Source: an uncultured bacterium
GTDB taxonomy: Bacteria; Methylomirabilota; Methylomirabilia; Rokubacteriales; DASRDR01
DNA length: 64,000 nt
Assembly (NCBI GenBank): GCA_964463175.1
Contig: CAYXBJ010000112.1
Coordinates: forward strand, 1,331 to 65,330
Direction of reading: 5' to 3'
The position numbers were made by a program, and so were the translations under genes. Of the stretch, positions 11,120 through 41,845 are shown in pieces. How positions within the stretch are numbered: the stretch's first letter is position 1; every line of letters starts with the position of its first letter. The notes below the pieces were generated by a model that was given only the letters and a program-made list of their open reading frames with translations, did no database searches and had not been told where the DNA came from.

Positions 11120-11205
11120 GCGCGAATCCTCCAGATCCCCTGTCGGGAAGGCGCGGCCAGTATGACACGCGGGCCGGCGCAGTTACCGGCCGGCGCACCC
11201 GATGG

Positions 11206-11742: not shown

Positions 11743-11861
11743 GCGCCAAGGCTACTCAATTGCCGGCTGTCGTGGAACCCGACAGTCCGGACGGTCCCCG
11801 GCTGAATAGGCCCCCGGCGCCCTCCATCCAATTGGTCGTGAACAAGGAGGAGGACACGACA

Positions 11862-12359: not shown

Positions 12360-12386
12360 CCAGTCGCACGGTCCCGATCGGCTCGA

Positions 12387-12422
12387 CAGCGGGCGACTCC
12401 AGGTCGCCCGCTGTTCGTTTGT
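12387..12422 (+). terminator. Rho-independent terminator downstream of the repeat-protein gene
   Basis: Perfect 11-bp stem cagcgggcgac / gtcgcccgctg with 5-nt loop, followed by the T-rich tract ttcgtttgt. Confidence 0.65.
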
Positions 12423-12603
12423 CCCGCCCGAAATCCGGGGCCCGTCCGTGGGCTCACTGCGAGCCGTGTAGTACCCTCGAACCCGCCGTGAACAAGCGCT
12501 CGAACGAGGACTGGCTGCGCGAGCTCCGCGCGAGCGGCGAGGGCCAGGCCGCCGCGGTCGGCGACCTCCGTGCCTATCAGCGGCAACGCGGAGGTGCTTA
12601 GAG

Positions 12604-13521: not shown

Positions 13522-13639
13522 GTCATCGCCTGAGTGGGCGCGAGCCTACGGCAGGATCGACAGACCTGCAACATCGGGTCACAACGTGCAGTCCCCTGGT
13601 CCCGAACCGACCTGGACGTTGTCGAGTGGCGATCTCGTC

Positions 13640-15622: not shown

Positions 15623-15665
15623 TGCTGCGCGGGGTCCGGTCCGGGTCAGTCGGCCCTGGCCCGCG

Positions 15666-16685: not shown

Positions 16686-16828
16686 GGGTCTCGACGCGCG
16701 GCATGATATACGCGCCTCGGTTTCCGCCACAAGGCGTCATGCCGCGCGCGGCGATGAATCGATCGCGCGAGGCCCGCCGCCGGGCGCCCCGCGAGCCGAG
16801 ACCGCGAGGTCACGGCCGATCGCGGGCG

Positions 16829-20643: not shown

Positions 20644-20817
20644 CCGGCTCCCCGGGCCGGCCGATCTCGAGGTCGCGCCGGCGCCCAGGCGATTGTAAAC
20701 CGTTCGCTCTGGACGCACGCGGTACACTCGTGGCTTGAATCGCCCGCGCGTGTCAGGCGGTCACGCTGCCGACGGGCGCGGCGGGACGGGTGATCCACGG
20801 GCACGCGAAGGAGTGAC

Positions 20818-21642
20818 ATGAGGACAAGCGCGGTGGTGGCGTTGGCGGGCTGGGCTCTGGTGTCGCCGATGACGAGCCGGGCCGAAGCCCCGCCCTCCGT
20901 CTTCCTCGAGGAGCTGACCTGGACCGAGGTGCGGGACCTGATCCGCGCCGGGGCCACGACCATCATCCTGCCAACCGGCGGCACGGAGCAGAACGGCCCG
21001 CACATGACGCTCGGCAAGCACAACGCCCGCGCGCGAGCCCTGTCGGCGGCGATCGCCCGCGCGCTCGGGAACGCGCTGGTCGCTCCGGTTCTCGCCTACG
21101 TCCCCGAGGGCGGGCTCGCGCCGCCGACCGGGCACATGCGCTACCCGGGCACGATCACGCTCGGCGAGGCGCCCTTCGAGGCCGTGCTCGAGTCCGCGGC
21201 CCGGAGCTTCGCCCTCCACGGATTCCGCGACATCGTCTTCCTCGGGGACAGCGGGGAGAACCAGCGGGGCCAGGAGGCGGTGGCGCGACGCCTGAACCAC
21301 GCCTGGGCCGGAACGGCGATCCGCGTCCACGCGATCGAGGCGTACTACCGGGCGAGCACCGCGGGCGCGAGCGCGCTCTTCCGGAGCCGCGGCTACCAGG
21401 ACAGCGAGCTCGGGCGCCACGCCGGCGCGCTCGACACGTCGCTCGCCCTGGCGGTCGACCCGAGCCTCGTGCGGCAGGACCGCCTGCACGCCGGCCCCTG
21501 GGAGGGTGCGGACGGCGATCCGAGCCGCGCGAGCGCCGAGGTGGGGCGCGCGGCCGTCGATCAGATCGTCGCCCAGACCGTCGAGGCCATCCGGCGTGCG
21601 GTCACGCGGCCCGCCGTCCCGCCGGTCGGCGCGCACCCATGA
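20818..21642 (+). CDS. Creatininase (creatinine amidohydrolase) family protein with N-terminal signal peptide
   Basis: ILPTGGTEQNGPHMTLGKHN and LAYVPEGG blocks are typical of the creatininase / MftE-like fold. Signal-like N-terminus MRTSAVVALAGWALVSPMTSRAEA. RBS AAGGAG upstream. Confidence 0.7.
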   Translation: MRTSAVVALAGWALVSPMTSRAEAPPSVFLEELTWTEVRDLIRAGATTIILPTGGTEQNGPHMTLGKHNARARALSAAIARALGNALVAPVLAYVPEGGLAPPTGHMRYPGTITLGEAPFEAVLESAARSFALHGFRDIVFLGDSGENQRGQEAVARRLNHAWAGTAIRVHAIEAYYRASTAGASALFRSRGYQDSELGRHAGALDTSLALAVDPSLVRQDRLHAGPWEGADGDPSRASAEVGRAAVDQIVAQTVEAIRRAVTRPAVPPVGAHP

Positions 21643-27720: not shown

Positions 27721-28029
27721 TCACGGCGATCGGCTGTCGAGGAGGATGACCCAGGGCTCGACGCGCGCGATCTCGAGCAGCCCGATCTGGGTCCAGGGGT
27801 CGGCGGCGAGGCGGGCGCGCACTGTGGCCTCGCTGTTCGAGTCGATCACCAACAGGGTCTCCTCGCCGCCTTCGCCCATCGGCCCGCCGAGCACGACGAA
27901 TCCCTCCGCGGCCAGGGCGTTCATGAAGCGGGCATGCGCGTCCCAGAGGACCTGCTGCCGCATCGGCCTCGCGTGATCCCACGCGGGCCCACGGACTCGA
28001 CGGACGGCGAAGTAGCGGAGCGGGCTCAC
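27721..28029 (-). CDS. YciI-like (Dabb-type) small protein
   Basis: Approximately 100 aa. Sequence pattern consistent with the YCII-related domain. Confidence 0.5.
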   Translation of the reverse strand: MSPLRYFAVRRVRGPAWDHARPMRQQVLWDAHARFMNALAAEGFVVLGGPMGEGGEETLLVIDSNSEATVRARLAADPWTQIGLLEIARVEPWVILLDSRSP

Positions 28030-28098
28030 GTCCCCCTCACCTGGCGCCTGGCGTGCGGCCGGGGCCCGAGGCCCCGTGCCCGGTAACGCGTCCGGGCG

Positions 28099-29040
28099 TC
28101 AGCCGGTCCGGCGGTGGAAGGCCGGCACGATCTCGGCGGCGAGCTGATCGAGCTGATCGAGCATCCGGTCGGGCGGGCACATCGGGCGCAGGATGAATTT
28201 CGACGCGCCCCCGGCGACGTACGCCTCGAGATGCTCCCGCACCCGCGCGGGCGGACCGAACGCCGTGCAGCACGCAAGCGTCGCGTCGTCCACGCGGCCC
28301 TTCGGGATGAAGGGCTCCGCCAGGGCGCGGGCGACGGCCGGGTCCGGATCGAGACAGTAGTAGAAGAGCGCGCCGAAGTGGTCGACGTCGATGCGGCGTC
28401 CCGCCTCGGCCGCGAACGCCTGCGTCTTCTCCACGCCGACGCGCACCTGCTCCGGCGTGATGAAGGATGGGATCCAGCCGTCGCCGAGCCGGCCCGCCCG
28501 ACGCATCGCCGCCTCGCTGTTGCCGCCGATCCAGAGCGGCATCGGCTGCTGGACCGGCTTCGGCAGGACGCTGACGCGGTCGAGCCGCCAGAACTCGCCG
28601 GCGAGCGTCACCTCGTCCTCGCTCCAGCACCGCCGCATGATCTGGATCGCCTCGTCGGTGCGGCGGCCGCGCTCGCGGAACGGCACGCCGGCCGCCTCGA
28701 ACTCCCGCGGCTGGTCGACGCCGATCCCGAAGGCCGGTAGCATGCGACCGTTCGAGAGGTAGTCGATCATCGCGATCTCGCGCGCGGCCATGACCGGCGT
28801 CCGGAACGGCGTGATGAACACGCTCGGCCCGAACTTGAGGCGGCTCGTCCGCGCGGCCACCGCTGCCATCGCCGTCATCGGCTCCGGTACCGGGAGGGGC
28901 GAGGACAGTCGCTCCGAGAACCACACGGAGTCGATCTCGCTCTTCTCGCAGAGCTCGACGAACCGCCAGAAGAAGTCGCGGCCGGCCGGCCCGTCGGGCC
29001 ACGGGCCCGGCATCACGCCGATGCGGTACTTGATGCGCAT
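28099..29040 (-). CDS. LLM-class (luciferase-like) flavin/F420-dependent oxidoreductase
   Basis: MRIKYRIGVMPGP...TIM-barrel LLM family pattern. 313 aa from ATG 29038-29040. Confidence 0.7.
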   Translation of the reverse strand: MRIKYRIGVMPGPWPDGPAGRDFFWRFVELCEKSEIDSVWFSERLSSPLPVPEPMTAMAAVAARTSRLKFGPSVFITPFRTPVMAAREIAMIDYLSNGRMLPAFGIGVDQPREFEAAGVPFRERGRRTDEAIQIMRRCWSEDEVTLAGEFWRLDRVSVLPKPVQQPMPLWIGGNSEAAMRRAGRLGDGWIPSFITPEQVRVGVEKTQAFAAEAGRRIDVDHFGALFYYCLDPDPAVARALAEPFIPKGRVDDATLACCTAFGPPARVREHLEAYVAGGASKFILRPMCPPDRMLDQLDQLAAEIVPAFHRRTG

Positions 29041-29090
29041 GACAACGACTTTAGCAGTCGGGCAGAAGCAGGTCCACGGAGGGCCCCGCG

Positions 29091-29519
29091 TTACGCGTGT
29101 CCTCGCGCGGGCATCACGCCGATCTGCTGGAGGAACCCCATGACGTCCTTCTCCGACCATTTCTCGGCCAGCTTGCCGTTGGCGATCCGGTGGATGGTGA
29201 TCGACGTCATCTTCAAGTCGTTGCCCGTCCTCGGGGCGCCAGGCAGATCTCCGGTGTGCTTCCCGATCGATGTCATCCGCGTGACGACGCGGTCCCTCTC
29301 GGCAATCTGGTCCTCGATGCGCTGATACCCTGGCGTCGCCTCCCAGAAGATCCTGAACGATTGCTTCACGCCCTCCCGCCCCGGTGGCAAGCCTGGGAAG
29401 GGAGGCGGATTGTGATCGATGTAATCCTCCGCGACCAGCTCATCCATCGCTTCCAGGTTGCTCTTGTCGATCCCGGCATAGAACCGGCGCACCAGCGCCT
29501 TGTTGGCTCCTGCAGACAT
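29091..29519 (-). CDS. SnoaL-like / NTF2-fold ester-cyclase family protein
   Basis: ANKALVRRFYAGIDKSNLEAMDELVAEDYIDHN is an NTF2-like signature. RBS AAGGAGAG upstream of ATG 29517-29519. Confidence 0.6.
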   Translation of the reverse strand: MSAGANKALVRRFYAGIDKSNLEAMDELVAEDYIDHNPPPFPGLPPGREGVKQSFRIFWEATPGYQRIEDQIAERDRVVTRMTSIGKHTGDLPGAPRTGNDLKMTSITIHRIANGKLAEKWSEKDVMGFLQQIGVMPARGHA

Positions 29520-29668
29520 CGATCTCTCCTTCTTCTCCTCGAGTCCAACTCTCACGGGTTCCGCTTGATGGAACGAGCAGGCGTCAATCGTCTCAGGCCC
29601 CATGGCGCGAGATCGCCGACCGGCCGCCGAAGGCGTCCCTCGAGCCAATCCGGCAACCCGGCGACCCC

Positions 29669-30595
29669 TTACGGCCGATTCCGAATGCCGAAGGGCACGT
29701 GGACGGACGGCGCGACGGTGGCCGCCGGGACCGCGTGCGTCTTCTGATCGTCGAAGAAGATGTGCGGGCGAAAGATCTCGAGAACCCGGTTCTTCCCGAG
29801 GCCGCCGAGCAGCAGGGTCTCGTCGACCGTGATGCCCCAGCTGCGGAGCGTCGTCACCATGCGCCGATGGGCCGGCGCATTCCGCGACGTCACGATCGCC
29901 GTCCGGATCTTGGGGAGATAGTGCGGGTCCCGCTGGACGCGCCGGCGCTCGAGCTGCTGCAGTCGGGCCATCTCCTCGAGAAGACGCTTCAGCGGACCGG
30001 CCTCGAGCGGCAGCGGCGCATGAGCATCCTCGTGATCGAGGAACTGCTGCAGGCCGTGCTCGTGGTTGACCCGCTCGGATTCGTCGCTCGCAAGCACCCC
30101 ATCGAAGTCGAAGGCGATCCGCAGCTCGGGATCCGTCGGGTCGTCCTCGACGCTCGATCCGAGCACCTGACCCGCCGGTCGCCCGTCCCCCAGAGCCGCG
30201 CGAACGTCCTCCTCGTTCGCCGAGAGGAAGAGACTCGCGTTGAACGCCGGCATGTACCGATAGGGGCGCCGTCCGGTCACGAAGGCGCCGCGCGAGATCG
30301 CCAGCTTGTGGTGCGCGATGGAGTTGAACACCCGCAGTCCGGTGTCCGGATCGTTCCGCGAGAGCAGGATGACCTCGACCGGCCGGTCGTCCGGATCGGG
30401 CTCGTTGAGGCTGAGGAGGCGGCGCACGAACGAGAACGCCACGCCCGGATTGAGCACGTCCTCCTCGTGCTCGCGCTGGTACCGGCGGTACTCGTCCTCG
30501 CCGCGCTCCCGGAACACGCGATCGGATTCGGTGAGGTCGAAGAGGGCGCTCGAGGCGAGCGCGACGACGAACTTCTCCTCGATCAGGAACGGCAA
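29669..30595 (-). CDS. Bacterial 5'-nucleotidase family (PF06189-like HAD-related) protein
   Basis: IAFDFDGVL DxD-type motif and overall similarity to the bacterial cytosolic 5'-nucleotidase family. Confidence 0.55.
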   Translation of the reverse strand: MPFLIEEKFVVALASSALFDLTESDRVFRERGEDEYRRYQREHEEDVLNPGVAFSFVRRLLSLNEPDPDDRPVEVILLSRNDPDTGLRVFNSIAHHKLAISRGAFVTGRRPYRYMPAFNASLFLSANEEDVRAALGDGRPAGQVLGSSVEDDPTDPELRIAFDFDGVLASDESERVNHEHGLQQFLDHEDAHAPLPLEAGPLKRLLEEMARLQQLERRRVQRDPHYLPKIRTAIVTSRNAPAHRRMVTTLRSWGITVDETLLLGGLGKNRVLEIFRPHIFFDDQKTHAVPAATVAPSVHVPFGIRNRP

Positions 30596-30633
30596 CGGTC
30601 AGCTCCGGAGCGGGACTGACCCTTGCGTCATCG

Positions 30634-31587
30634 TCATCGAGCCTGTGCGAGCCGCGCGGCGACGCCGTCGGGGACCGGGTAGCGGCGCGTGGCGGGGCCG
30701 GCCTTGACGAGCTGACCCGGGAGCACGCGACCCACCACCTCCTGGACGCGGCGCGACACGCCCAGCAACCGGTCGAGATCGATGCCGGTCTGGACGCCCA
30801 TGGCGTGGAGGCCGTGGACGAGGTCCTCCGTGCAGACGTTGCCGGACGCCCCGGGCGCGAACGGGCAGCCGCCGAGCCCGCCGATCGAGCTGTCGAAGTG
30901 GGTCACGCCGCACGCCATCGCGGCGAGGATGTTCGGGATCGCCATCGCGCGCGTGTCGTGCGTGTGGAGCGTCCACTCAACGCCGGGGAAGCGCGGCATG
31001 AAGCGCTCCAGGATCGCCGTCACCTGCCGCGGGTTCGCCATGCCGGTCGTGTCAGCGAGGGCGATGCCGGGGGCGCCCATGTCGACGAGCGACCGCACCA
31101 CCCACTCCAGCCGCTCGACCGGCACGTCGCCCTCGAACGGGCACCCGAACGACGTCGAGATCGCGCAGTTCACCGCCACCCTCGCGCGCGCGGCGACCTC
31201 CAGCACGGCGCGGAGCTTCACCAGCGACTCGGCGACCGTCATGTTGACGTTGGCGAGGTTGTGGCTCTCGCTCGCGGAGACGACGGTGTGGATCGCGTCG
31301 ACGCCGGCGTCGACCGCGCGCACGGCGCCCTTGTCGTTCGGCACGAGCGCGACGTAGCGCGTGCCCGGCCGCCGGCGGATCCGCGCCATGACCTCCTCGG
31401 CGTCCCGCATCTGGGGCACCACCTTCGGGTGGACGAACGACGTGACCTCGATGCGCGGGAGGCCGGTCTCGGACAGGCGGTCGATGACCTCGACCTTCGT
31501 CTCGGTCGGAATCCACTCGGGCTCGATCTGGAAGCCGTCGCGGGGCCCGACCTCGCAGATGGTGACGCGCGCCGGCAGTGTCAGCAT
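30634..31587 (-). CDS. Hydroxymethylglutaryl-CoA lyase-like (HMGL-like TIM barrel)
   Basis: VTICEVGPRDGFQ...HTHDTRAMAIPNILAAMACG contains the DRE/HxH-type metal site of the HMG-CoA lyase family. Confidence 0.8.
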   Translation of the reverse strand: MLTLPARVTICEVGPRDGFQIEPEWIPTETKVEVIDRLSETGLPRIEVTSFVHPKVVPQMRDAEEVMARIRRRPGTRYVALVPNDKGAVRAVDAGVDAIHTVVSASESHNLANVNMTVAESLVKLRAVLEVAARARVAVNCAISTSFGCPFEGDVPVERLEWVVRSLVDMGAPGIALADTTGMANPRQVTAILERFMPRFPGVEWTLHTHDTRAMAIPNILAAMACGVTHFDSSIGGLGGCPFAPGASGNVCTEDLVHGLHAMGVQTGIDLDRLLGVSRRVQEVVGRVLPGQLVKAGPATRRYPVPDGVAARLAQAR

Positions 31588-31624
31588 CCGACGTCCTCCC
31601 GAGCCCGGGGCGATCCGGGCTCGC

Positions 31625-32545
31625 TCATAGCTCGCGCGGGCAGCCCGGCGCCGTCGACCCGAGCGCGTGGGCCATCGCGCGGAGATGCGCGGGCGCGCTC
31701 CCGCAGCAGCCGCCGACGATCCGGACGCCCGCGGCGACGAGTCGCTTCGCGTAGTCGGCCATCTCCTCCGGGCTCCCGCGGTAGACGGCCTTCCCGTCCT
31801 CCAGCACCGGCAGGCCGGCGTTCGGCTTGGCGACGAGCACCGCGTCCGGGACGGCCGCGTGCATGGCGACCATCGCGGGCAGGAGCTCCGCCGGGCCGAG
31901 GCCGCAGTTGCCGCCGACCGCCGCGGCGCCGAGCGCGGTCAGCTCCTTCGCCGCCTGCTCGGGGCTGACGCCCATCATCGTGTGCCCGTGGGTGTCGAAG
32001 CTCATCGTGACGACCACCGGCACGCCGGGCGCCGCCTGGCGCACGCCCTCGAGCGCGGCCTCGACCTCCTCGAGCGCCGACATGGTCTCGATCCAGAACA
32101 CGTCGACGCCGCCGGCATGGAGGGCGGCCGCCTGCTCGGCGAATCCCTTGACGGCGTCGTCACGCTCGAGCTCCCCGAGGGGCGCCAGGATCCCGCCGCT
32201 CGGGCCGATGTCGCCGGCGACGACGGCCCGGCTGCCCGGCGCGTGCGCGATCGCCCCGGCGAGCCTCGCCGCGGCTTCGTTCAGCTCGGCGACCCGCGTG
32301 TCGAGGCCGTGAAGCGCGAGGCGGAACCGGTTCCCGCCGAACGTGTTGGTCAGGAGGATCCGCGCGCCGGCGTCCTGGTACGCGCGGTGGATCTCGCAGA
32401 TCACGTCGGGGCGCTCGACGTTCCAGCGCTCCGGGGAGTCGCCGGAGGTGAGCCCGGCCTCGAAGAGCATCGTGCCCATGGCGCCGTCTGCCAGGATCGG
32501 GCCCGGCGCCGCGAGAAGCGCCCGCCAGCGCGCGCCGTCAGGCAA
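31625..32545 (-). CDS. Homocysteine S-methyltransferase-domain protein (MetH N-terminal-like; candidate methylcorrinoid:homocysteine/THF methyltransferase)
   Basis: ILADGAMGTML...ILLTNTF...VGGNCGLGP...GGCCGSAPAHL (Zn-binding Cys triad pattern). Start is probably the TTG at 32543-32545 (8-nt overlap with the corrinoid-protein gene), so the start is low confidence. Confidence 0.7.
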   Translation of the reverse strand: MPDGARWRALLAAPGPILADGAMGTMLFEAGLTSGDSPERWNVERPDVICEIHRAYQDAGARILLTNTFGGNRFRLALHGLDTRVAELNEAAARLAGAIAHAPGSRAVVAGDIGPSGGILAPLGELERDDAVKGFAEQAAALHAGGVDVFWIETMSALEEVEAALEGVRQAAPGVPVVVTMSFDTHGHTMMGVSPEQAAKELTALGAAAVGGNCGLGPAELLPAMVAMHAAVPDAVLVAKPNAGLPVLEDGKAVYRGSPEEMADYAKRLVAAGVRIVGGCCGSAPAHLRAMAHALGSTAPGCPREL

Positions 32546-33224
32546 GGGAGCCGCCCATCTTCTCGGCCATGAGGCGCTTCGCCGTCGCGACGGCCTTCGC
32601 GGCGTCGCGGCAGTAGGCGTCGGCGCCGATCGTCTTCGCGAAGTCGGCGTTGAGCGGCGCGCCGCCGACCAGGACGATGAGCTTCTCGCGGAGCCCGGCC
32701 TCCTTGAGCGCCTGGATCACCACGCGCATGTACGGCATCGTCGTCGTGAGAAGCGCGCTCATCCCGAGGATGTCGGCGCCGTGCTCGCGCACGGCATGCA
32801 GGAACTTCTCGACGTCGGTGTTGATGCCGAGGTTGATGACCTGGAAGCCGGCCCCCTCCATCATCATCCCGACCAGGTTCTTCCCGATGTCGTGGATGTC
32901 GCCCTTGACGGTGCCGATGACGAGCGTGCCGATGCGCGGCGCGCCGGTCTCGGCGAGGAGGGGCCGCAGGACCTCCATCCCCCCCTTCATCGCCTTCGCG
33001 GCCATCAGCACCTGCGGGACGAAGAGCTTCCCGGTGCGGAAGTCCTCCCCCACGACGTCCATGCCGGCGATGAGGCCCTGGGTGAGGGCGTCGTAGGGCG
33101 TGAGCCCGCGGCGGAGGAGTTCGTGGACGCCGGCCACGACGGGCTCGACGTGGCCGCCGTAGAGGTTGTCCTGGATCTGCTCCAGGAGCTCCTCGAGCGG
33201 CAGCTGCGTGAGGTCGCTACTCAT
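32538..33224 (-). CDS. Cobalamin (B12)-binding corrinoid protein (MtgC/MtbC-like)
   Basis: DxHxxG B12-binding motif (GDIHDIGKNLV) and cap + Rossmann B12-binding domain organisation. 228 aa. Confidence 0.8.
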   Translation of the reverse strand: MSSDLTQLPLEELLEQIQDNLYGGHVEPVVAGVHELLRRGLTPYDALTQGLIAGMDVVGEDFRTGKLFVPQVLMAAKAMKGGMEVLRPLLAETGAPRIGTLVIGTVKGDIHDIGKNLVGMMMEGAGFQVINLGINTDVEKFLHAVREHGADILGMSALLTTTMPYMRVVIQALKEAGLREKLIVLVGGAPLNADFAKTIGADAYCRDAAKAVATAKRLMAEKMGGSLA

Positions 33225-33227
33225 TCG

Positions 33228-34754
33228 CTAGGCCTCGGCCTGCTGGGCGAGCCGGCGGCGCCGCCGCTCCGCCCGGTCGGAGAGCGCCTCGTCGGGCGCG
33301 CGCGTCCAGCCCTCGGGCGGCGCGAACGTCGCGGCCACCATGCCGGCGAACTCCGAGCGGAGCCGCGCGTCGACCTCGGGGGAGAAGAGGCTCGGCGCGT
33401 CGCGGGTGAGAATGTCGCGGACCCGCGCCATCGCGCGCCCCTGAGCGTCGAGCCCGCCCTTCTCGATCCACCCCTGACGGGGATCTCGGTCAGCGATCTC
33501 CGGAAGGAACCCCGTGGTGCGCATGCGCTCGAGCGTGTGCACGTGGTCGGCGAACATGCCGCCCGGCCCCACTTCCTTGATCACGTCGAGCGCGAAGTTC
33601 TCCTCGGTCAGCTCGAGGCCCTTCTGGATGCGACGGAGCATCGCCACGATCTCGTCGTCGATGACCGCCTTCGCGAAGTCGAACGACATGAGGGCGTCCA
33701 GGAGCCCCGCCATGTTGAAGAGATGATTGCCGGACAGGAGCGCCGCCACCCCGGACATGCCGGTCTCGAAGCCGGACTGGGCGTCGTTCACCTTCGCGTT
33801 CGAGAGTCCGATGTAGCCGCCGCACGGCACGCCGTAGAAGCGCGCCAGCTGCGCGACCCCCATGAACAGCATGCCGGTCTCGATGGCGCCCGGCGCGTAG
33901 GCGCCGGTCCGCATGTCGGCCACCGTCGGGAGGCTCGAGTAGATCGTCGCCTTCCCCGGCCGCACCATCTGCTCGAGGACGATCGCCGCCAGGAACTCGG
34001 CGTTCCCTTGCACCAGCGTGCCGGCGAGCGTCAGCGGCGACGTCAGCCCGGCGTTCGGCACGAGGGTCGGATGGCCGGGCAGGCCGCGCTCGGCGTAGTA
34101 GATGAGGGTCTCGGTGGAGTCGTAGTCCATGGTGAGGGGCGACACGCACGGGCAGTAGTGGTGCGTGATGAAGGGCCGCGCCATGTAGGCGGCCTCGCCC
34201 CCGGCAATGATGTGGGCGAGCTTCAGGATCGAGTCGAGCTCCTCCGGCGGGCCGCTGATGCGGATCGGCTTCCGGCAGTACTTGAGCGCGGCGTAGAGCC
34301 GCGTGGTCGAGAAGAAGGCGGGCGGCGCGTCGTCGGCGAGCGTCGAGACCGAGAAGATGTCGTAGTTCGGGAGCTGATCGACGAGCCGCGCGATGCGCGC
34401 GATGTCCGCGGCCAGCGCGCGGCGGGCGATCCCCGTCGCCGGGTCGACCATGTCGGGGGCCGAGCTGCCCGTGATCACCACCGGCGCGTCGTCGGGCACG
34501 GTGCGATCGAACTGCGGGTCGCGCGCCCGGAACGTGAACTTCGGCGGCATGCCGGCGCGGTGCTGCTCGACCACCGCGCGCGGGAACCGGACCCTTTCCC
34601 CGCCCGCCTCGACCTTGCAGCCGTGCTTGGCGAAGATCTCGCGAGCGCGGGCGTTCCGGACGAGCATCCCCACGTCTTCCAGGATCTCGAGGGAGGCCTC
34701 GTGGACCCGGCGGACCTCGTCCTCGGACAGGAACGCCGCGGGTGTCCGGATCAT
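33228..34754 (-). CDS. MttB-superfamily (non-pyrrolysine) quaternary-amine:corrinoid methyltransferase (MtgB-like)
   Basis: 508 aa with typical MttB-family blocks. Uninterrupted ORF with no in-frame amber codon, i.e. the non-Pyl clade. GGGGGAG RBS upstream of ATG 34752-34754. Confidence 0.8.
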   Translation of the reverse strand: MIRTPAAFLSEDEVRRVHEASLEILEDVGMLVRNARAREIFAKHGCKVEAGGERVRFPRAVVEQHRAGMPPKFTFRARDPQFDRTVPDDAPVVITGSSAPDMVDPATGIARRALAADIARIARLVDQLPNYDIFSVSTLADDAPPAFFSTTRLYAALKYCRKPIRISGPPEELDSILKLAHIIAGGEAAYMARPFITHHYCPCVSPLTMDYDSTETLIYYAERGLPGHPTLVPNAGLTSPLTLAGTLVQGNAEFLAAIVLEQMVRPGKATIYSSLPTVADMRTGAYAPGAIETGMLFMGVAQLARFYGVPCGGYIGLSNAKVNDAQSGFETGMSGVAALLSGNHLFNMAGLLDALMSFDFAKAVIDDEIVAMLRRIQKGLELTEENFALDVIKEVGPGGMFADHVHTLERMRTTGFLPEIADRDPRQGWIEKGGLDAQGRAMARVRDILTRDAPSLFSPEVDARLRSEFAGMVAATFAPPEGWTRAPDEALSDRAERRRRRLAQQAEA

Positions 34755-34973
34755 GACTGGCTCCCCCTGACGCGGGTAGACGCGCCCCCCGCGCTGGCCA
34801 TCCAGGGTACCAGAGATGGGGCCAGATCTTGCCTTCCGGACGAGTCGCGAACCCCGGTCCGCCGCCCGGAGTAGGTCCGCAGCCGGAGGAAATGTCCGTG
34901 CAGCCAGGTCCGATCCTCCCCTGCTAGACTGGGGCCACTTCTACACTGGGGTGACTTCCAGGAGGAGCCGACC

Positions 34974-35834
34974 ATGCCCGCAGCGACCACCCGGACGGCG
35001 CACGCGATGTCGCCGGAAGAGCAGCAGGCGTTCTACGCGGACCAGGGTTACCTGGTCTTCCCCGAGATGCTGGGTCGCGACGAGGTCGCCGCGTTGCGCG
35101 CGGCGCTGGACGAGGTGCTCGAGGAGGCCCGGGGACTGACCGAGAACACCCCGAAGTTCTCCGTCACCCGGGGCCACGACGGCGCTCACCACGTGCGCCG
35201 GATCTTCAACCCGATCCAGCACCACAAGGCGTTCCACGACGCCGCGTTCCATCCGCGGATCCTCGACGCCGTCGAGAATCTCATCGGCCCGAACATCCAG
35301 CTCCACCACAGCAAGCTCAATCTGAAGCCGCCGTCGAGCCCCGAGTCGAGGTTCGAGTGGCACCAGGACTATCCGTTCTTCCCGCACACCAACTACGACC
35401 TGCTCGCGGTGCTGGTGCACATCGACGAGTCGACCGAGGAGAACGGGTGCCTCCGGATCATGCCGGGCATCCACCGGCTCGGTCCGCGCCTCCACCGGTT
35501 CGCCAAGGACGGCGCCTTCTCGTCGCAGCTCGAGGACCGGAGCGTGCTCGCCGACGAGTCGCAATTCCTCAACGTCCCCTGCCCGGCCGGCGGCGTGGAG
35601 CTGCACCACTGCAACATGCTCCACAGCTCGACCGCGAACCGCGGCACCGCGCCGCGCAGCGTGCTGATCTTCCAGTACCGCGCCGCGGACAACGTCGCGC
35701 TGGGCGGCGGCATGGCGCACTTCGGGTTCGGGATGATGGTGCGGGGGGCGATGCCCTATCGGGCGCGCATGCTCGACGGCACCCTCGTCGCGCTGCCCGG
35801 CGAGATCAAGGACCCGCTCCAGCGGGACGGCTAG
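34974..35834 (+). CDS. Phytanoyl-CoA dioxygenase (PhyH) family Fe(II)/2-oxoglutarate-dependent oxygenase
   Basis: WHQDYPFF...HxD...H facial-triad pattern of the PhyH family. GGAGGAG RBS 6 nt upstream of ATG 34974. Confidence 0.8.
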   Translation: MPAATTRTAHAMSPEEQQAFYADQGYLVFPEMLGRDEVAALRAALDEVLEEARGLTENTPKFSVTRGHDGAHHVRRIFNPIQHHKAFHDAAFHPRILDAVENLIGPNIQLHHSKLNLKPPSSPESRFEWHQDYPFFPHTNYDLLAVLVHIDESTEENGCLRIMPGIHRLGPRLHRFAKDGAFSSQLEDRSVLADESQFLNVPCPAGGVELHHCNMLHSSTANRGTAPRSVLIFQYRAADNVALGGGMAHFGFGMMVRGAMPYRARMLDGTLVALPGEIKDPLQRDG

Positions 35835-35867
35835 CGCCGGGGCCGCGCTTCGCGTCTCCGCCGCGCG

Positions 35868-36188
35868 TCAGCGCGCGGCCGGAGCGGGCCCCAGCTCGGC
35901 CTCGAGGAACTCGCGGGTGCCGGGCGGGCCGGTGAGCTCGAGCCATGCGGGACCGCCGCCGGGCTCGACCGTCAGCCGGAACCGGAGGAACGCGCAGCAT
36001 CGCCGCTCGAGGTCGATGAACGTCGCGAGGAGTGCCAGGCGCTCCGGCTCGGCGGCAAAACGGAGCGCGACGCCATCCGGCAGCCAGCGGGCATCCTCCC
36101 GGGCCCGCCGGACCTCGCCCAGCACGCCGGCCCGGCGCTCGGCGAGCTCGGGCTCGGTCAGGCTGCAGGCGACGGGCAGGTCGGTCAC
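35868..36188 (-). CDS. Hypothetical small protein (~106 aa) upstream of the MBL gene
   Basis: Coding-like composition in the C-terminal 106 codons of track ORF 35868..36470. GTG start 36186-36188. No recognised domain. Confidence 0.3.
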   Translation of the reverse strand: MTDLPVACSLTEPELAERRAGVLGEVRRAREDARWLPDGVALRFAAEPERLALLATFIDLERRCCAFLRFRLTVEPGGGPAWLELTGPPGTREFLEAELGPAPAAR

Positions 36189-36199
36189 GCCCGGTCGAC

Positions 36200-37138
36200 C
36201 TACCCGCCGAAGGTGAACGTCGAGCCGGTCGAGCTCACGACCAGCTCCTTCCCCATCTGCTGGGCGAGCCGGACGAACGCCTCCGCGCCCGTGCAGTGCT
36301 GGGGCACGAGGTAGTCGACCTCGAAGCCGCGGAGCGCCTCGACGACGCGATCGATCCGCTCCGCGTCGAGCCCGGACAGATGGAAGCCGCCGATCACGGC
36401 GTGGATCTTCGCGACTCCGCTGACGCGCGCCGCGTGGCGGCAGATGCCGACGATCCCGCGATGCGAGCACGACGTGACGACGACCAGCCCGCGGTCCTTC
36501 ACGTGGGCGACGAGGGTCTGCTCGCCGATGAACGTGTCCTGGACGAAGGCGCCGTCCTGCTCCATGCGGAGCGACGGCGGGATCGCCTCGTACGGCTCCG
36601 GCGCCCGCATCTCGCCCGAGAGGAGCACGCCCTCGGGAAGGACCATCGGCTCCGGCACGTCGACCACGTCGAGATCCCAGCGCGCGACGTCACCCCGGTC
36701 GAGGCGGCCGAGGGACACACGGTCCCCGTCCCGCTCCATGAAGCGCGCGACGTAGTGATTCGGATGGCCGTAGAAGCGAAGCCCCGGCCGCATGACGCGC
36801 CGGTACGCCGTCAGGAAGCCGAGCAGCCCGCCGAAGTGATCGGAGTGGCCGTGAGAGAGCGCGAGCGCGTCGATCTTCGTCGCGTCGAGGCCCAGCTCCC
36901 GGAAGTTGTGAGTCATCGACGCGGCGCTGAGGCCGAAGTCAAACGCCAGGCGGGCGCTCTCGCGTCCCCGCGTCACCTCCACGTGGTGGGCGAGACCGTG
37001 CTCGGCGCGGAGGTCGGCGATCTTCCGGGCCCGCGGGACGCTCCAGCGGCGCGCGACCTTCTCGTCGGCGCGCAGGATGTCGACCGAGTTGTCGACGACG
37101 GTGGTGACGGCGACGCGATCGACCACCGGCAGCGGCAT
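36200..37138 (-). CDS. MBL-fold metallo-hydrolase
   Basis: HxHxDH motif (LSHGHSDHFGG). 312 aa from ATG 37136-37138. The track ORF has a 132-aa junk N-terminal extension. Confidence 0.7.
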   Translation of the reverse strand: MPLPVVDRVAVTTVVDNSVDILRADEKVARRWSVPRARKIADLRAEHGLAHHVEVTRGRESARLAFDFGLSAASMTHNFRELGLDATKIDALALSHGHSDHFGGLLGFLTAYRRVMRPGLRFYGHPNHYVARFMERDGDRVSLGRLDRGDVARWDLDVVDVPEPMVLPEGVLLSGEMRAPEPYEAIPPSLRMEQDGAFVQDTFIGEQTLVAHVKDRGLVVVTSCSHRGIVGICRHAARVSGVAKIHAVIGGFHLSGLDAERIDRVVEALRGFEVDYLVPQHCTGAEAFVRLAQQMGKELVVSSTGSTFTFGG

Positions 37139-37143
37139 GGCTC

Positions 37144-38310
37144 TCAGTACGACCGCGGGAGGCCGAGGACGTGCTCGGCGATGTACGCGGTGACCAGGTT
37201 CTGGTTGATGGGCGCCGTCTTGTAGAGCCGCGCCTCGCGGAACTTCCGCTCGATGTCGTACTCCTCGGCGAACCCGTAGCCGCCGTGGCAGTCGACGCAG
37301 GCGTTGGCCGCCTCCCACGCCGCCTCGGCCGAGAGGTACTTGGCCATGTTGGCCTCGGCACCGCAGGGCTGGCCGGCGTCGAAGAGCGCGGCCGCCTTGT
37401 TCCGCATGAGCTCCGACGCCTCGACCGCCATGTGGGCCTTGGCGATCGGAAACTGGACGCCCTGGTTCGCCCCGATCGGCCGCCCGAAGATCACGCGCTG
37501 GTTCGAGTAGGCCACCGCCTTCTCCACGAACCACCGCCCGTCCCCGACGGAATCCGAGGCGACCAGGATGCGCTCGGCGTTCATGCCGTCGATGATGTAG
37601 GAGAAGCCGCGGCCCTCCTCGCCGATCAGGCTCTCGGCGGGGATCTCCATGTTGTCGAAGAAGAGCGCGTTGGTGGAGTGGTTCATCATCATGCGGAGCG
37701 GCCGGACCTCAAGCCCCTGCGCCTGGCGCAGGTCGAAGAGGAACACGGACAGCCCGTCCGTCTTCCGCGTCACGTGGTCGACCGGCGTCGTGCGCGCGAG
37801 GAGCAGCATCAGATCGGATTGCAACACCCGCGAGATGAAGATCTTCTGGCCGTTGACGACGTAGCGGTCGCCCCGGCGCACCGCGGTCGTCTGGAGCTTG
37901 GTGGTGTCCGACCCCGAGTTCGGCTCGGTCACGCCGAACGCCTGGAGCCGGAGCTCGCCGGTCGCGATCTTCGGGAGATAGCGCCGCTTCTGGTCCTCGG
38001 AGCCGTGCCGGAGGACCGTGCCCATGATGTACATCTGGGCGTGGCACGCCGCCGCGTTACCGCCGCACGCGTTGATCGTCTCGAGGATGAGGCCGCCCTC
38101 GAGGATGCCGAGTCCGGCGCCGCCGTACTCCGTCGGGACCAGGGCGCCGAGGTAGCCGGCGCGCGTGAGCTCGGTTACGAACGCCTCCGGGTAGGCGCGC
38201 TCCTGATCGAGCTGCCGCCAGTACTCGCCCGGATAGCGCTTGCAGATCTCGGCCACGCCCGCCTTCAGCGCGCGCTGCTCGTCGGTCAGCGTCAGGCTCA
38301 TGGACACCAT
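37144..38310 (-). CDS. Acyl-CoA dehydrogenase
   Basis: Full ACAD architecture (N-terminal helical, beta-barrel and C-terminal helical domains, e.g. ...GGYGFAEEYDIERKFREARLY). 388 aa. Confidence 0.85.
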   Translation of the reverse strand: MVSMSLTLTDEQRALKAGVAEICKRYPGEYWRQLDQERAYPEAFVTELTRAGYLGALVPTEYGGAGLGILEGGLILETINACGGNAAACHAQMYIMGTVLRHGSEDQKRRYLPKIATGELRLQAFGVTEPNSGSDTTKLQTTAVRRGDRYVVNGQKIFISRVLQSDLMLLLARTTPVDHVTRKTDGLSVFLFDLRQAQGLEVRPLRMMMNHSTNALFFDNMEIPAESLIGEEGRGFSYIIDGMNAERILVASDSVGDGRWFVEKAVAYSNQRVIFGRPIGANQGVQFPIAKAHMAVEASELMRNKAAALFDAGQPCGAEANMAKYLSAEAAWEAANACVDCHGGYGFAEEYDIERKFREARLYKTAPINQNLVTAYIAEHVLGLPRSY

Positions 38311-38320
38311 GGCTCGGCCC

Positions 38321-39118
38321 TCAGCGCCCCTCGAACCGAGGCTTCCGGCGCTCGTTGAACGCGCGGACGCCCTCGACGCGGTCCTGGGTCACGACCGTCG
38401 CGTTGTAGGCCTCGATCGACAGCACCATCCCGGTCTCGAGGTCGGTCTCGCCGCCCCAGGCGATCGCCTTCTTCGCCTGGCGCACTGCCACCGGGCCGTT
38501 CTCCGCGATGGTGGCGGCGAGCTCGGTCGCCCGGAGTCGCGCCTGGCCGCGCGGCACGACATGGTTCACGAGGCCGATCGCCCGCGCCTCCGGAGCCTCC
38601 ACGCGCCGTCCCGTGAAGATGAGCTCCTTCGCCAGCGGCGCGCCGACGATGCGCGGCAGGAGCTGCGTCCCGCCCACGCCGGGGAAGATCCCGCGGGTGA
38701 CCTCCGGCAGGGCGAACACCGCGCTCTCGCTCGCGACGACGAAGTCGGCGAGGAGGGCGAGCTCGCAGCCGCCGCCGAACGCGAAGCCCTCCACGGCGGC
38801 GATCACTGGCGCCGGGCAGCGGAGGATGGCCATCGCCGCCTGCTCGAAGATGAGGTGCTGGGCGCGCCAGACGTCGTCCGACATGCCCTCGCGCTCCTTG
38901 AGGTCGCCGCCGACGCAGAACGCGCGATCACCCGCGCCGGTGAACACGACCGCGCGCACGCCCGGCGCGACGGCCGGCCCGCGGAAGCACCCGAGAAGGT
39001 CCTCGCCCATCGCCGTGTTCATCGCGTTCAGGACCTCCGGGCGGTGCAGCACCACGGTGAGGACGTGGCCGTCCCCCGAGCCCTCGAGCCGGAGCGTGCG
39101 GAAGCTCGCCTCGCTCAC
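38321..39118 (-). CDS. Enoyl-CoA hydratase/isomerase (crotonase), CaiD-like
   Basis: LTVVLHRPEVLNAMN...AFCVGGDLKE...GFAFGGGCELALL crotonase signatures. 265 aa. Confidence 0.85.
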   Translation of the reverse strand: MSEASFRTLRLEGSGDGHVLTVVLHRPEVLNAMNTAMGEDLLGCFRGPAVAPGVRAVVFTGAGDRAFCVGGDLKEREGMSDDVWRAQHLIFEQAAMAILRCPAPVIAAVEGFAFGGGCELALLADFVVASESAVFALPEVTRGIFPGVGGTQLLPRIVGAPLAKELIFTGRRVEAPEARAIGLVNHVVPRGQARLRATELAATIAENGPVAVRQAKKAIAWGGETDLETGMVLSIEAYNATVVTQDRVEGVRAFNERRKPRFEGR

Positions 39119-39211
39119 GCGAGCCTATCCACGCGAGACCGAGCGACGCCGCGCGCCAGCTCGACCATTCGGTTCATCCGCTCGGCGACACGGTCCGGCG
39201 CGCACGACCCG

Positions 39212-40414
39212 TCACTCCGGCAAGGGCCAGTCGACGACGCCCTGCGCGCGAAGCTCGCCCATCTCGACCGCGCCGAAGCCGAGCTCGCCGAGGAGGTCGA
39301 TGGTGTGCTCGCCCACGCGCGGCGGCGGGCGGCGGGGCACCGGGCGCTCGTCGCCGAACCGCACGGGAAGCGCCACCGTCGTGAGATCGGGAAGGTCCGG
39401 ACGCGGCGTGGGCATGAGCATCTCGCTCGCCTTCGTCTGGGGATCCGTCGCGACCTGATCGACGGTCTGCACCGGCGCGCCGGTGACGCCGGCCTGGCGG
39501 AGGCGCTCGAGGAGCTCCGCGGTCGCCCACGGACGCGTCAGCCCTTCCAGCACGGGGACGAGCGTCGCGCGGTTCTGCACGCGATCGGGGTTGGTGCGGT
39601 ACCGCGGGTCGGCGGCGAGCTCGGGGCGCCCGAGGGCCTCGCAGAGCCGGCCGAAGAGCGCGTCGGTCGGGGTCGTGATCATGAGGTAGCCGTCGACCGT
39701 CGGGAAGGCCTGGTAGGGCACGATCATCGCCGCGGCCGAGCCCTGGGGCTGCAGCACCTCGCCGGTTCCGAGGTACGCCATGATCTGGTAGGGAATCCAC
39801 GCGAGCGCGGTGTCGAAGAGCGCGGTGCTCACCTCCGAGCCGACCCCGGTCTCGTCCCGCTCCCGGAGTGCCGCCAGGACGCCGAGCGCCGCCCACATCC
39901 CCGTTCCCATGTCGACCATCGACGTGCCCGCGCGCACCGGCGCCTGGCCGGGGTGGCCGGTCAGCCGCATGAACCCGCTGTAGCCCTGCATCATCGGGTC
40001 GTACCCCGGATGCTCGCGCAGCGGCCCGCGGCTCCCGAACGCGGTCACCGAGCAGTAGACGAGTCGGGGGTTGAGGGCGCGGGCCTGCGCCGTGCCGAAG
40101 CCGAGCTCGTCGGCGTTGCCGGGGCGGAAGCTCTGCACGAGCACGTCCGATCGCCGGACGAGCCGCTCGATCACCGCGCGGGCCCCGGGCGCTTTCACGT
40201 CGAGGGCGAGGCTCCGCTTGTTCCGGTTGAACGACAGGAAGATCGTGCCCTCCGGCCCCCAGCGCGGCGGCGCCCACGCGCGCGTCTCGTCCCCGCGGCC
40301 CGGCCGCTCGACCTTGACCACGTCCGCGCCCAGGTCCCCGAGGATCTGGGTGCAGTACGGCCCGGCCACGTTCTGCGTGAGATCGAGGACGGTCAGCCCG
40401 GCCAGCGCGGTCAC
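39212..40414 (-). CDS. Family III CoA-transferase (CaiB/BaiF-like)
   Basis: LAGLTVLDLTQNVAGPYCTQILGDLGADVVKVE is the family-III N-terminus. Start assigned to GTG 40412-40414. Codons upstream to ATG 40546 are AT-rich and non-coding-like. Confidence 0.7.
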   Translation of the reverse strand: MTALAGLTVLDLTQNVAGPYCTQILGDLGADVVKVERPGRGDETRAWAPPRWGPEGTIFLSFNRNKRSLALDVKAPGARAVIERLVRRSDVLVQSFRPGNADELGFGTAQARALNPRLVYCSVTAFGSRGPLREHPGYDPMMQGYSGFMRLTGHPGQAPVRAGTSMVDMGTGMWAALGVLAALRERDETGVGSEVSTALFDTALAWIPYQIMAYLGTGEVLQPQGSAAAMIVPYQAFPTVDGYLMITTPTDALFGRLCEALGRPELAADPRYRTNPDRVQNRATLVPVLEGLTRPWATAELLERLRQAGVTGAPVQTVDQVATDPQTKASEMLMPTPRPDLPDLTTVALPVRFGDERPVPRRPPPRVGEHTIDLLGELGFGAVEMGELRAQGVVDWPLPE

Positions 40415-40518
40415 GGCGATCAGTATAGCCTCGCCGGCCGGGTCCGCGGACCATCCCGGCCCGGACGGCGCGGGTCGGGTTGACGGCCGGGCGGCGCCGC
40501 CGCAGAATGCGACGTAAG

Positions 40519-40534
40519 TTGGTCGGCCAACCAA
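40519..40534. promoter_or_regulatory. Near-palindrome TTGGTCGGCCAACCAA in the divergent TetR / CoA-transferase intergenic region (candidate TetR operator)
   Basis: 16-bp inverted repeat with one mismatch. Lies in the only AT-richer stretch between the divergent genes. Confidence 0.4.
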
Positions 40535-40641
40535 TTTATGTTCCACTTCATGTCATCGAGCGGTGAGTGCAAAGCGTGTCGAGAATCGGATGCGCCCCCT
40601 GACGGGGACCTCCCGCGATTCGCGCCGCGAGGGCGTCGTCC

Positions 40642-41274
40642 GTGAGCCCGCGACCCAGGGTCGCCGACGAGCGTCGAGCGGCGATCGTCCGCGCCACCAT
40701 CCGCTGCCTGGCGCGTGACGGGTATGCCCGTCTCACGATGAAGCGGGTCGCCGCGGAGGCGGGCGTGAGCCCCGGCATCCTCCACTACTACTTCCGCGAC
40801 AAGCGCGCGATCCTGGGCCGCGCCGCCGCCACCGTCATGGCCGATCTCGATCGGCGCGTGGCGACCGAGGCACGCGGCGCGCGCGACGCGAGGGGGCGCC
40901 TGCGGGCTCTCCTCCGCGCCTGCCTCGAGGTCGCGACCGAGAGCCGCGAGTTCTGGACGGTGCTCATCGAGCTGTGGGGCGAGGCGCTCCACGACCGGGA
41001 GCTCGCGCGGCTGAACCGGCTCGCCTACGCGCGAGCCCGGCGGTTCCTCGCGGCGGGCGTCGCGCGGGGCGCCGCGGCCGGCACCTTCCGCAAGGTCGCG
41101 CCCGACGAGGCCGCGGCGGTCATCCTCGCCCTCGTGGACGGGCTCTCGCTCCAGATCACCTTCGACCCCGAGCTGATGCCGCTCGGCCGCGCCGTTCGTG
41201 TCGCGGAGGAGGCGCTGGGCGCCTATCTGGCGGGGGCCGGCCGATCCGATGCGTGGGAGGACCGCCATGGCTGA
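40642..41274 (+). CDS. TetR/AcrR family transcriptional regulator
   Basis: N-terminal HTH (RLTMKRVAAEAGVSPGILHYYFRDKRAIL). 210 aa. Confidence 0.85.
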   Translation: MSPRPRVADERRAAIVRATIRCLARDGYARLTMKRVAAEAGVSPGILHYYFRDKRAILGRAAATVMADLDRRVATEARGARDARGRLRALLRACLEVATESREFWTVLIELWGEALHDRELARLNRLAYARARRFLAAGVARGAAAGTFRKVAPDEAAAVILALVDGLSLQITFDPELMPLGRAVRVAEEALGAYLAGAGRSDAWEDRHG

Positions 41275-41845
41275 CCCGGCCCGGCCCGCGCGTGCCCGCC
41301 TGCTCGACTACCTCCGGGCGCGGGCCGCCGGGCTCGACGCGCCGCGGCTCCGGGCGCGCGTGCGCTCGGCGGCGGCGGAGTTCGAGGCGGCACTCGCGGG
41401 GCTCGATGAGCCCGCGGCGCGCCGGCGGGTCACCGCGGACGAGTGGACGGTGGCGCAGGTGGTGGATCACGTCGCCCAGTCCACCGTGCGATCCGCCGAG
41501 GAGCTCCGCCATCTCCGCGCGGGCCGGCGGCCGCCGGGTCCGCCGATCTACGAGGCGCTCCTCTCCGGGGCCGCCCACCGCGTGCCGTGGACCGAGCTGG
41601 TCGACGGTCTACGGGAGGCGATGGCTGCGCTCGACGAGGCGCTGAGCGGCCCCGCCGCGCTCGACGGCAGCCCGGCGCGCACGGTCACCGCGCCGGCCGT
41701 CCTGGTGATCAACGCGGAAGAGGCGGGCGGCACGCCCGAGATCTTCGCGGCCGAGCTCACGTGGCCGGAGTACGCGCTCGTGGTGCGGCTGCACCTCCTG
41801 GAGCACCGTGCGCAGGTCCGTCAGCTCCGCAGCGCGGGAGTCTGA
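41267..41845 (+). CDS. DinB-like / maleylpyruvate-isomerase N-terminal-domain family protein
   Basis: WTVAQVVDHVAQS...(DinB_2-like helical bundle His motif). ATG 41267 overlaps the TetR stop (ATGGCTGA). Confidence 0.5.
   Translation: MADPARPARARLLDYLRARAAGLDAPRLRARVRSAAAEFEAALAGLDEPAARRRVTADEWTVAQVVDHVAQSTVRSAEELRHLRAGRRPPGPPIYEALLSGAAHRVPWTELVDGLREAMAALDEALSGPAALDGSPARTVTAPAVLVINAEEAGGTPEIFAAELTWPEYALVVRLHLLEHRAQVRQLRSAGV

Follow-up and report, generated by a model that had tools for sequence, protein, structure and literature searches.

A putative corrinoid-dependent methyl relay from a quaternary amine to homocysteine, encoded by a three-gene cassette in Rokubacteria

We analysed a 64,000-nucleotide (nt) stretch of DNA (hereafter the window) from an uncultured Rokubacteriales bacterium of the phylum Methylomirabilota (GenBank assembly GCA_964463175.1, contig CAYXBJ010000112.1, positions 1,331 to 65,330). 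The window has a G+C content of 71% and carries an LptD gene, which fits a diderm organism. Our analysis centred on three co-directional genes, referred to as the cassette and listed here in the order in which they are read:

33228-34754, minus strand: non-pyrrolysine MttB-superfamily methyltransferase (MT1, substrate:corrinoid), 508 amino acids (aa), PF06253
32538-33224, minus strand: corrinoid (cobalamin-binding) protein, MtgC type, 228 aa, PF02607 and PF02310
31625-32545, minus strand: stand-alone homocysteine zinc methyltransferase (MT2, MtgE/Bmt type), 306 aa, TTG start, PF02574

The MttB stop codon is separated from the corrinoid protein gene by 3 nt, whilst the latter overlaps the PF02574 gene by 8 nt, and the two are translationally coupled. 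Independent JGI gene calls on identical metagenome contigs gave the same three products. An earlier reading of the letters and open reading frames (ORFs) of this DNA (the sequence-only reading) had described an MttB homologue without an in-frame TAG, a corrinoid protein with a DxHxxG motif, and a zinc methyltransferase resembling the N-terminus of MetH and belonging to the homocysteine methyltransferase family. All of these assignments were borne out by profile and structure-based searches.

The MttB-family ORF was uninterrupted, with no in-frame UAG, and matched PF06253 across a full-length TIM-barrel domain (E = 1.6e-93, profile positions 30-490 of 500). Its score against the pyrrolysine (Pyl)-type model TIGR02369 (366.6) fell below the cutoff (525), and Leu317 (codon 33804-33806) aligned with Pyl334 of Methanosarcina barkeri MttB (7xcl), placing the protein in the non-Pyl branch. 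The top solved structure was a glycine betaine methyltransferase (9yce/2qne, 245 bits), with MttB 7xcl reaching only 177 bits. The window MttB shared 35% identity with MtgB of Desulfitobacterium hafniense and 26% with that of Sinorhizobium meliloti, and the homologue search found no cultured or plasmid/chromid homologue with greater than 34% identity.

In D. hafniense MtgB, glycine betaine is contacted by Y97 and F356 (cation-pi) and by R312 and H348 (carboxylate), and R312 is stated to be conserved in all non-Pyl members of known function that act on acidic quaternary amines, namely MtgB, MtcB, MtpB, MtyB and MthB (Picking et al., JBC 2026, PMC13080624). Alignment of the window MttB with D. 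hafniense MtgB, M. barkeri MttB and S. meliloti MtgB revealed that all four contacts are replaced (Y97 by Ser97, R312 by Gly312, H348 by Asn347 and F356 by Leu355). Gly312 was assigned from a gap-free stretch of the alignment anchored by FYGVP and DAQ. The contacts are partly conserved in S. meliloti MtgB, which retains the Arg and the His. Ser, Gly and Leu at these positions were common to all 55 aligned sequences of the clade, and the fourth position was mostly Asn, with Gln in the Verrucomicrobiota and Planctomycetota members and Ser in a single sequence (L070). The clade also has Tyr314, two residues past Gly312, and a THHY insertion (about residues 196-199); judging from the alignment, the two could rebuild a carboxylate and cation-pi binding site. 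By these sequence features, the window MttB is a member of a divergent, uncharacterised MttB subfamily without the conserved Arg. The substrates of the characterised members, which the sequence-only reading had named, are thus not transferable to this protein, as all four MtgB contact residues, including the conserved Arg, are replaced.

The corrinoid protein carried the expected DxHxxG...SxL signature (DIHDIG at residues 109-114, SAL at 156), in which His111 (codon 32892-32894) is the lower-ligand residue. Its top NCBIfam matches were anaerobe-type MtgC models, both under their cutoffs (209 versus 370 and 194 versus 310), and it also matched the cap and B12 domains of MetH (TIGR02082, 153 bits). 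We recovered the S. meliloti MtgBCDE locus and used its C and E proteins as identity references; the corrinoid protein shared 65% identity with the cobalamin-binding protein encoded there. The PF02574 enzyme (E = 4.8e-69) was 47% identical to S. meliloti Bmt (MtgE) and exceeded the cutoff of the betaine--homocysteine S-methyltransferase model NF005718, which covers MtgE/Bmt (345.7 versus 338). Against solved structures, it scored 182 bits to the homocysteine barrel of Thermotoga maritima MetH (1q7m), 78 to BHMT and 69 to MmuM-type enzymes. Cys214 (31904-31906) and Cys280/281 (31703-31708) aligned with the conserved cysteines of CSLGP and GGCCG in the T. maritima enzyme (Cys207 and Cys272/273, which bind zinc in that protein). 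On the basis of their identity to the S. meliloti proteins and the passed NF005718 cutoff, sequence comparison assigns the corrinoid protein and the PF02574 enzyme to the published MtgC and MtgE families.

We further investigated the conservation of this arrangement, counting those loci with at least 5 kb of sequence downstream of the MttB gene. The window MttB was 87-97% identical to proteins from Candidatus Rokubacteria / Methylomirabilota metagenome-assembled genomes (MAGs), and the MttB, corrinoid and PF02574 genes were directly consecutive in 9/9 Rokubacteria MAG loci. Clade relatives at 55-71% identity occurred in Chloroflexota, Acidobacteriota, Verrucomicrobiota and Planctomycetota, and all three gene families were also linked in the first three of these phyla. 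Among the 34 loci from other phyla, the MttB clade was linked to a corrinoid protein in 21, a RACo activase in 19, a DMGDH-like FAD/GCV_T (FAD/folate) N-demethylase in 18, a PF02574 enzyme in 17 and a pterin-binding protein in 11. RACo and DUF1638 were present in the Chloroflexota, Acidobacteriota and Verrucomicrobiota relatives, and some members of the clade adjoined complete MtgC-MtgE-DUF1638-MetF-MtgD-RACo sets. Chance adjacency of the three cassette genes was rejected, since the arrangement is conserved across Rokubacteria and other phyla.

Genes for the folate and activation modules of related systems were sought by tblastn and with six-frame profile HMMs built from the relatives. Neither approach identified pterin-binding (PF00809/MtgD), RACo/RamA or DUF1638 genes in the 64-kb window, where PF00809 gave no six-frame profile match at E below 1. 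Likewise, no pterin-binding, RACo or DUF1638 match was found at E <= 0.01 in 219 kb from 11 Rokubacteria MAG loci (up to about 10 kb from the cassette). In the other loci, these models matched 11 ORFs for the pterin-binding protein, 23 for RACo and 7 for DUF1638. Seven Verrucomicrobiota loci linked the MttB, corrinoid, RACo and PF02574 genes without a detectable PF00809-type protein. The lack of local MtgD, RACo/RamA and DUF1638 genes favours direct transfer from the corrinoid protein to homocysteine.

Two further layouts were observed among the relatives. In a Verrucomicrobiota locus (L052, 13792-15003), a 403-aa Cys-rich protein with an SPGYDGW motif is encoded between the RACo activase and PF02574 genes. 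It recurred in six others (L046, L048, L049, L053, L054 and L057), matched nothing in Pfam, NCBIfam or the PDB, and may represent a hitherto unrecognised module of these systems with an accessory or reactivating role. On a plasmid of Terrarubrum flagellatum (NZ_CP091854.1; L075, 4048-14506), bmt directly precedes an MttB-family gene within a sarcosine oxidase and DMGDH-like cluster, so that PF02574 and PF06253 are linked there in yet another layout. No corrinoid protein gene was among the genes listed in about 17 kb of this incomplete plasmid gene table.

The sequence-only reading had proposed a split MetH-like route in which a quaternary amine donates the methyl group for methionine synthesis. 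The component identities, the operon and the logic of donor to corrinoid to homocysteine all fit this proposal. The concept itself has direct published precedent and the cassette is not a new kind of system, because a split MetH (Price et al. 2018) and the sharing of MtgC between MtgBCD and MtgE (Mausz et al., PNAS 2025, PMC12478193) precede it. In Ruegeria pomeroyi, MtgC and MtgD are both required for glycine betaine demethylation (with the PF06253 protein MtgB) and for methionine synthesis (with the PF02574 protein MtgE); the same study equates MtgE with PGA1_c13370 of the Phaeobacter inhibens split MetH and with S. meliloti 'Bmt', and reports that the MtgBCDE genes are co-located in S. meliloti (PMC12478193). 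The cassette shares with these systems the Pfam modules PF06253, PF02607/PF02310 and PF02574, and the logic of one corrinoid carrier serving both a methyl-donor module and a homocysteine module. However, its surroundings lack MtgD (PF00809), RamA/RACo, DUF1638 and MetF2, its MttB protein has neither the Arg nor the His of the distantly related (26%) S. meliloti MtgB, and the three genes form one coupled operon, in contrast to marine bacteria, whose mtgE lies apart from mtgBCD. The host also differs, being a member of the Methylomirabilota from soil rather than one of the marine bacteria in which the published system was described. Taken on its gene content, the cassette is a stripped-down, divergent version of the marine MtgBCDE system, and what appears new is the occurrence of the MtgC/MtgE pair in one operon with an Arg-less MttB subfamily and without a local folate module.

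A comparable, uncharacterised locus was found in a Chloroflexia contig (L018, CAVPYC010000003.1), where GntR, MttB, EamA, RACo, MtgC, MtgE, DUF1638, MetF and MtgD genes follow one another in one direction (9155-19519). Its MttB (68% identical, with the same four substituted residues), corrinoid protein (74%) and PF02574 enzyme (59%) resemble those of the window, and the overlap between the corrinoid and PF02574 genes recurs. By gene content, this locus has everything in the MtgBCDE-plus-activation set of Mausz et al., but with an MttB of the Arg-less subfamily at its centre; EamA, RACo, DUF1638, MetF and MtgD were either lost from the Rokubacteria cassette or never local to it.

Comparison with other methyltransferase systems helps to place the cassette. 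The D. hafniense MtgB/MtgC/MtgA system (glycine betaine:corrinoid:tetrahydrofolate (THF); 2QNE, 9YCE) is likewise a three-component MT1/corrinoid/MT2 system with Leu at the Pyl position, but its MT2 is the pterin-binding MtgA and not a homocysteine methyltransferase, and its Y97/R312/H348/F356 contacts stand against S/G/N/L here. MetH combines homocysteine, pterin, B12 and AdoMet-activation domains in a single polypeptide, and its homocysteine barrel accepts methyl from methylcobalamin. The PF02574 protein of the cassette aligns with that barrel over its full length and keeps the Cys triad. In contrast to MetH, two separate cassette proteins cover only the homocysteine and B12 functions; pterin-binding and AdoMet reactivation domains are lacking, and the methyl-donor module is the MttB TIM barrel. 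BHMT and the SAR11-type Bhmt belong to PF02574 as well and carry out the same net reaction as that proposed here (betaine + homocysteine to dimethylglycine + methionine). Unlike the cassette protein, which has a corrinoid protein and an MttB as partners and scores only 78 bits to BHMT structures, they do so as a single corrinoid-free enzyme.

We propose that the MttB-family protein (MT1) would demethylate a quaternary amine and methylate the Co(I) form of the corrinoid protein, and that the PF02574 zinc enzyme (MT2) would then move the methyl group from CH3-Co(III) to homocysteine, yielding methionine and regenerating Co(I). Reactivation of the corrinoid protein would depend on an activase encoded elsewhere. 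The net function of the cassette would be that of a three-component, B12-dependent betaine:homocysteine methyltransferase or, put differently, of a split MetH in which the folate module has been swapped for an MttB module. The last step, transfer from the methyl-corrinoid protein to homocysteine by the PF02574 enzyme, is the simplest reading of this protein's likeness to the MetH barrel and of the gene overlap. We infer the identity of the methyl donor and the direct flow through the three proteins, and consider the chances of the complete pathway, from methyl donor through MttB and the corrinoid protein to methionine, to be about even; with no pterin module nearby, it is the most economical route.

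The genes flanking the cassette are as follows:

40642-41274, plus strand: TetR-family regulator (PF00440 and PF13977), divergent from the CoA-transferase gene
39212-40414, minus strand: family-III CoA-transferase
38321-39118, minus strand: enoyl-CoA hydratase
37144-38310, minus strand: acyl-CoA dehydrogenase
36200-37138, minus strand: MBL-fold protein
35868-36188, minus strand: 106-aa Cys-containing protein (Cys8, CC pair in ERRCCAF), no family match
34974-35834, plus strand: PhyH-family 2-oxoglutarate dioxygenase (PF05721, E = 4.6e-32), divergent from the MttB gene
30634-31587, minus strand: 3-hydroxy-3-methylglutaryl-CoA (HMG-CoA)-lyase-family gene, 37 nt downstream of the cassette (PF00682; NF004283, 362 versus a cutoff of 246)
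29669-30595, minus strand: PF06189 '5'-nucleotidase' family gene, following the HMG-CoA lyase gene (E = 2.5e-125)

The cassette looks like part of an acyl-CoA catabolic operon, with an upstream co-directional block spanning 35868-40414 on the minus strand. The wider gene order was retained in most Rokubacteria loci: a divergent BetI-like TetR regulator, family-III CoA-transferase, enoyl-CoA hydratase and acyl-CoA dehydrogenase, then (MBL-fold protein, 106-aa protein, PhyH), the three cassette genes and HMG-CoA lyase. The 106-aa protein was 77-83% identical in most of these loci, between the MBL-fold and MttB genes. In two (L013 and L015), the acyl-CoA dehydrogenase gene directly precedes the MttB gene. 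The HMG-CoA lyase gene follows the cassette in the Rokubacteria loci extending far enough. PhyH had a tblastn match in only two MAG loci (L012 and L014). The PF06189 gene had no NCBIfam match, and its tblastn matches were confined to identical metagenome contigs, with none in the Rokubacteria MAG loci.

The TetR regulator, itself conserved in Rokubacteria loci, had BetI (choline-binding repressor, TIGR03384) as its top family match, at 109 bits and below the cutoff of 201; the next family matched at E = 1e-10. The CoA-transferase scored 306 bits to succinate-glutarate CoA-transferase and 94 to CaiB, and the dehydrogenase and hydratase scored lower against Cai models than against generic ones, which weakened a CaiB/CaiA/CaiD-like carnitine or gamma-butyrobetaine route as a candidate. 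With lower probability, the BetI-like regulator, CoA-transferase, dehydrogenase, hydratase and HMG-CoA-lyase-like genes could serve to turn a longer-chain betaine into the substrate of the cassette. The flanks of nine Rokubacteria loci contained no consistent betaine transporter, BetB or DMGDH gene (aldehyde dehydrogenase in 3/34 ORFs, DAO in 1), and neither BCCT nor betaine-ABC families were among the 25 commonest families listed for them. The whole window gave no match of any kind at the Rfam gathering threshold, including no cobalamin, S-adenosylmethionine (SAM) or S-adenosylhomocysteine (SAH) riboswitch, a permissive RNA scan of the MttB-PhyH intergenic region returned sub-threshold chance matches only, and promoter and terminator counts across 28000-41500 differed little or not at all from those expected of shuffled sequence.

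Glycine betaine or a close analogue is suggested by this comparison as the leading candidate donor, because clade members with the same pocket residues adjoin DMGDH-like N-demethylases and the Rokubacteria regulator is most similar to BetI, albeit below the cutoff. There is nevertheless a sizeable, though less than even, chance that the donor is something else, such as a sulfonium compound, a different betaine or a non-acidic quaternary amine (e.g. choline), perhaps with a connection to the flanking acyl-CoA pathway; the relay may still hold in that case. The Gly in place of R312, the Arg conserved in characterised members acting on acidic quaternary amines, points in this direction, as do the position of the cassette between acyl-CoA dehydrogenase and HMG-CoA lyase genes, the BetI-like regulator and the distance of the MttB from any cultured or plasmid homologue. 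However, DMGDH-like demethylases beside clade members with the identical four residues would be expected if dimethylglycine were the product, the THHY insertion and Tyr314 could restore binding of a carboxylate and quaternary nitrogen, and the CoA-transferase is nearer to dicarboxylate enzymes than to CaiB.

Several considerations weigh against the proposed relay as a whole. The replaced contacts (Y97S, R312G, H348N, F356L) leave its substrate uncertain. If homocysteine were the sole acceptor, flux would be capped at the demand for methionine and SAM, which is odd beside catabolic acyl-CoA genes. MtgB and MtgE have been treated as competing modules, with mtgE down-regulated on glycine betaine (bioRxiv 10.64898/2025.12.19.695462). 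No reductive activase, which a corrinoid relay requires, is encoded nearby, and it must therefore lie elsewhere; a pterin methyltransferase could also sit elsewhere in the genome, and the published model, in which the corrinoid protein is a hub, would then apply. Under that model, the corrinoid protein and PF02574 enzyme would form a split methionine synthase together with MtgD and an activase encoded elsewhere, MttB would share the corrinoid protein only to pass methyl groups to THF for catabolism, and the methyl group of methionine would come from methyl-THF. R. pomeroyi knockouts back this arrangement (PMC12478193), Chloroflexia and Acidobacteriota relatives of the MttB clade carry MtgD, MetF, DUF1638 and RACo in-locus, and the need for an activase that is locally absent means that other parts are necessarily unlinked. 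Yet we consider it less likely than not here, given that pterin modules were absent from both the window and the surroundings of the cassette in the 11 Rokubacteria loci, that the seven Verrucomicrobiota loci with MttB, corrinoid, RACo and PF02574 genes also lacked a PF00809-type match, and that the tight operon differs from the unlinked, oppositely regulated mtgE of marine bacteria.

The PF02574 enzyme might also act alone, as a cobalamin-independent betaine (or dimethylsulfoniopropionate (DMSP) or S-methylmethionine):homocysteine methyltransferase, leaving the MttB and corrinoid protein to serve another, unlinked acceptor enzyme. In keeping with this, the enzyme passes the NCBIfam betaine--homocysteine S-methyltransferase model, and a purified homologue, P. 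inhibens Bmt, was reported to produce methionine from betaine or DMSP without B12 or THF (PMC12366255). We nonetheless judge independent action improbable. The enzyme is far closer to the homocysteine barrel of MetH than to BHMT, enzymes of the S. meliloti type are stated not to have the residues with which human BHMT binds betaine (Mausz et al., PMC12478193), and the overlap of its gene with that of the corrinoid protein, which is retained in different phyla, speaks for a 1:1 partnership.

If correct, the proposed relay would be the clearest genomic case of a corrinoid protein passing methyl directly from a quaternary amine on to homocysteine, a step that the 2025 MtgBCD/MtgECD papers imply without showing. 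It is relevant to the debate about bacterial 'Bmt/Bhmt' enzymes, which may work on their own or belong to a corrinoid complex as modules, and it would extend B12-dependent osmolyte demethylation to Rokubacteria and other uncultured lineages of several phyla. A stronger and more doubtful version is that the cassette is a self-contained, folate-independent, B12-dependent methionine synthase, fed by an osmolyte-type quaternary amine through an uncharacterised MttB subfamily without the usual Arg/His/aromatic set, and so perhaps with a new substrate range, e.g. non-acidic quaternary amines. With binding residues unlike those of every characterised member, this subfamily is a good target for enzyme discovery.

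Finally, the window contains a second, divergent PF02574 gene, located in a separate region with the following neighbours:

13640-15694, minus strand: OYE/FadH-like Fe-S flavoenzyme, 660 aa, 29-nt overlap with the second PF02574 gene
15666-16685, minus strand: second PF02574 protein, 339 aa (E = 1e-34)
16829-18610 and 18559-20727: caprolactamase/hydantoinase-like B and A subunits
20818-21642: creatininase-family gene, divergent from the hydantoinase-like genes

The sequence-only reading had called this second gene an MmuM-type homocysteine methyltransferase. It does encode a PF02574 protein with the Cys triad kept, 30% identical to the cassette enzyme, but it is only weakly MmuM-like, scoring 88.1 bits against the MmuM/YagD model NF007020 (cutoff 215). 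The top match of the overlapping flavoenzyme was the mycofactocin-system OYE_2 model (550 bits versus a cutoff of 793), and the two genes may form a second homocysteine-linked methyl or redox module. The adjoining genes (16829-21642) suggest a catabolic cluster for lactams or for compounds of the N-methylhydantoin/creatinine type near the second PF02574 gene.

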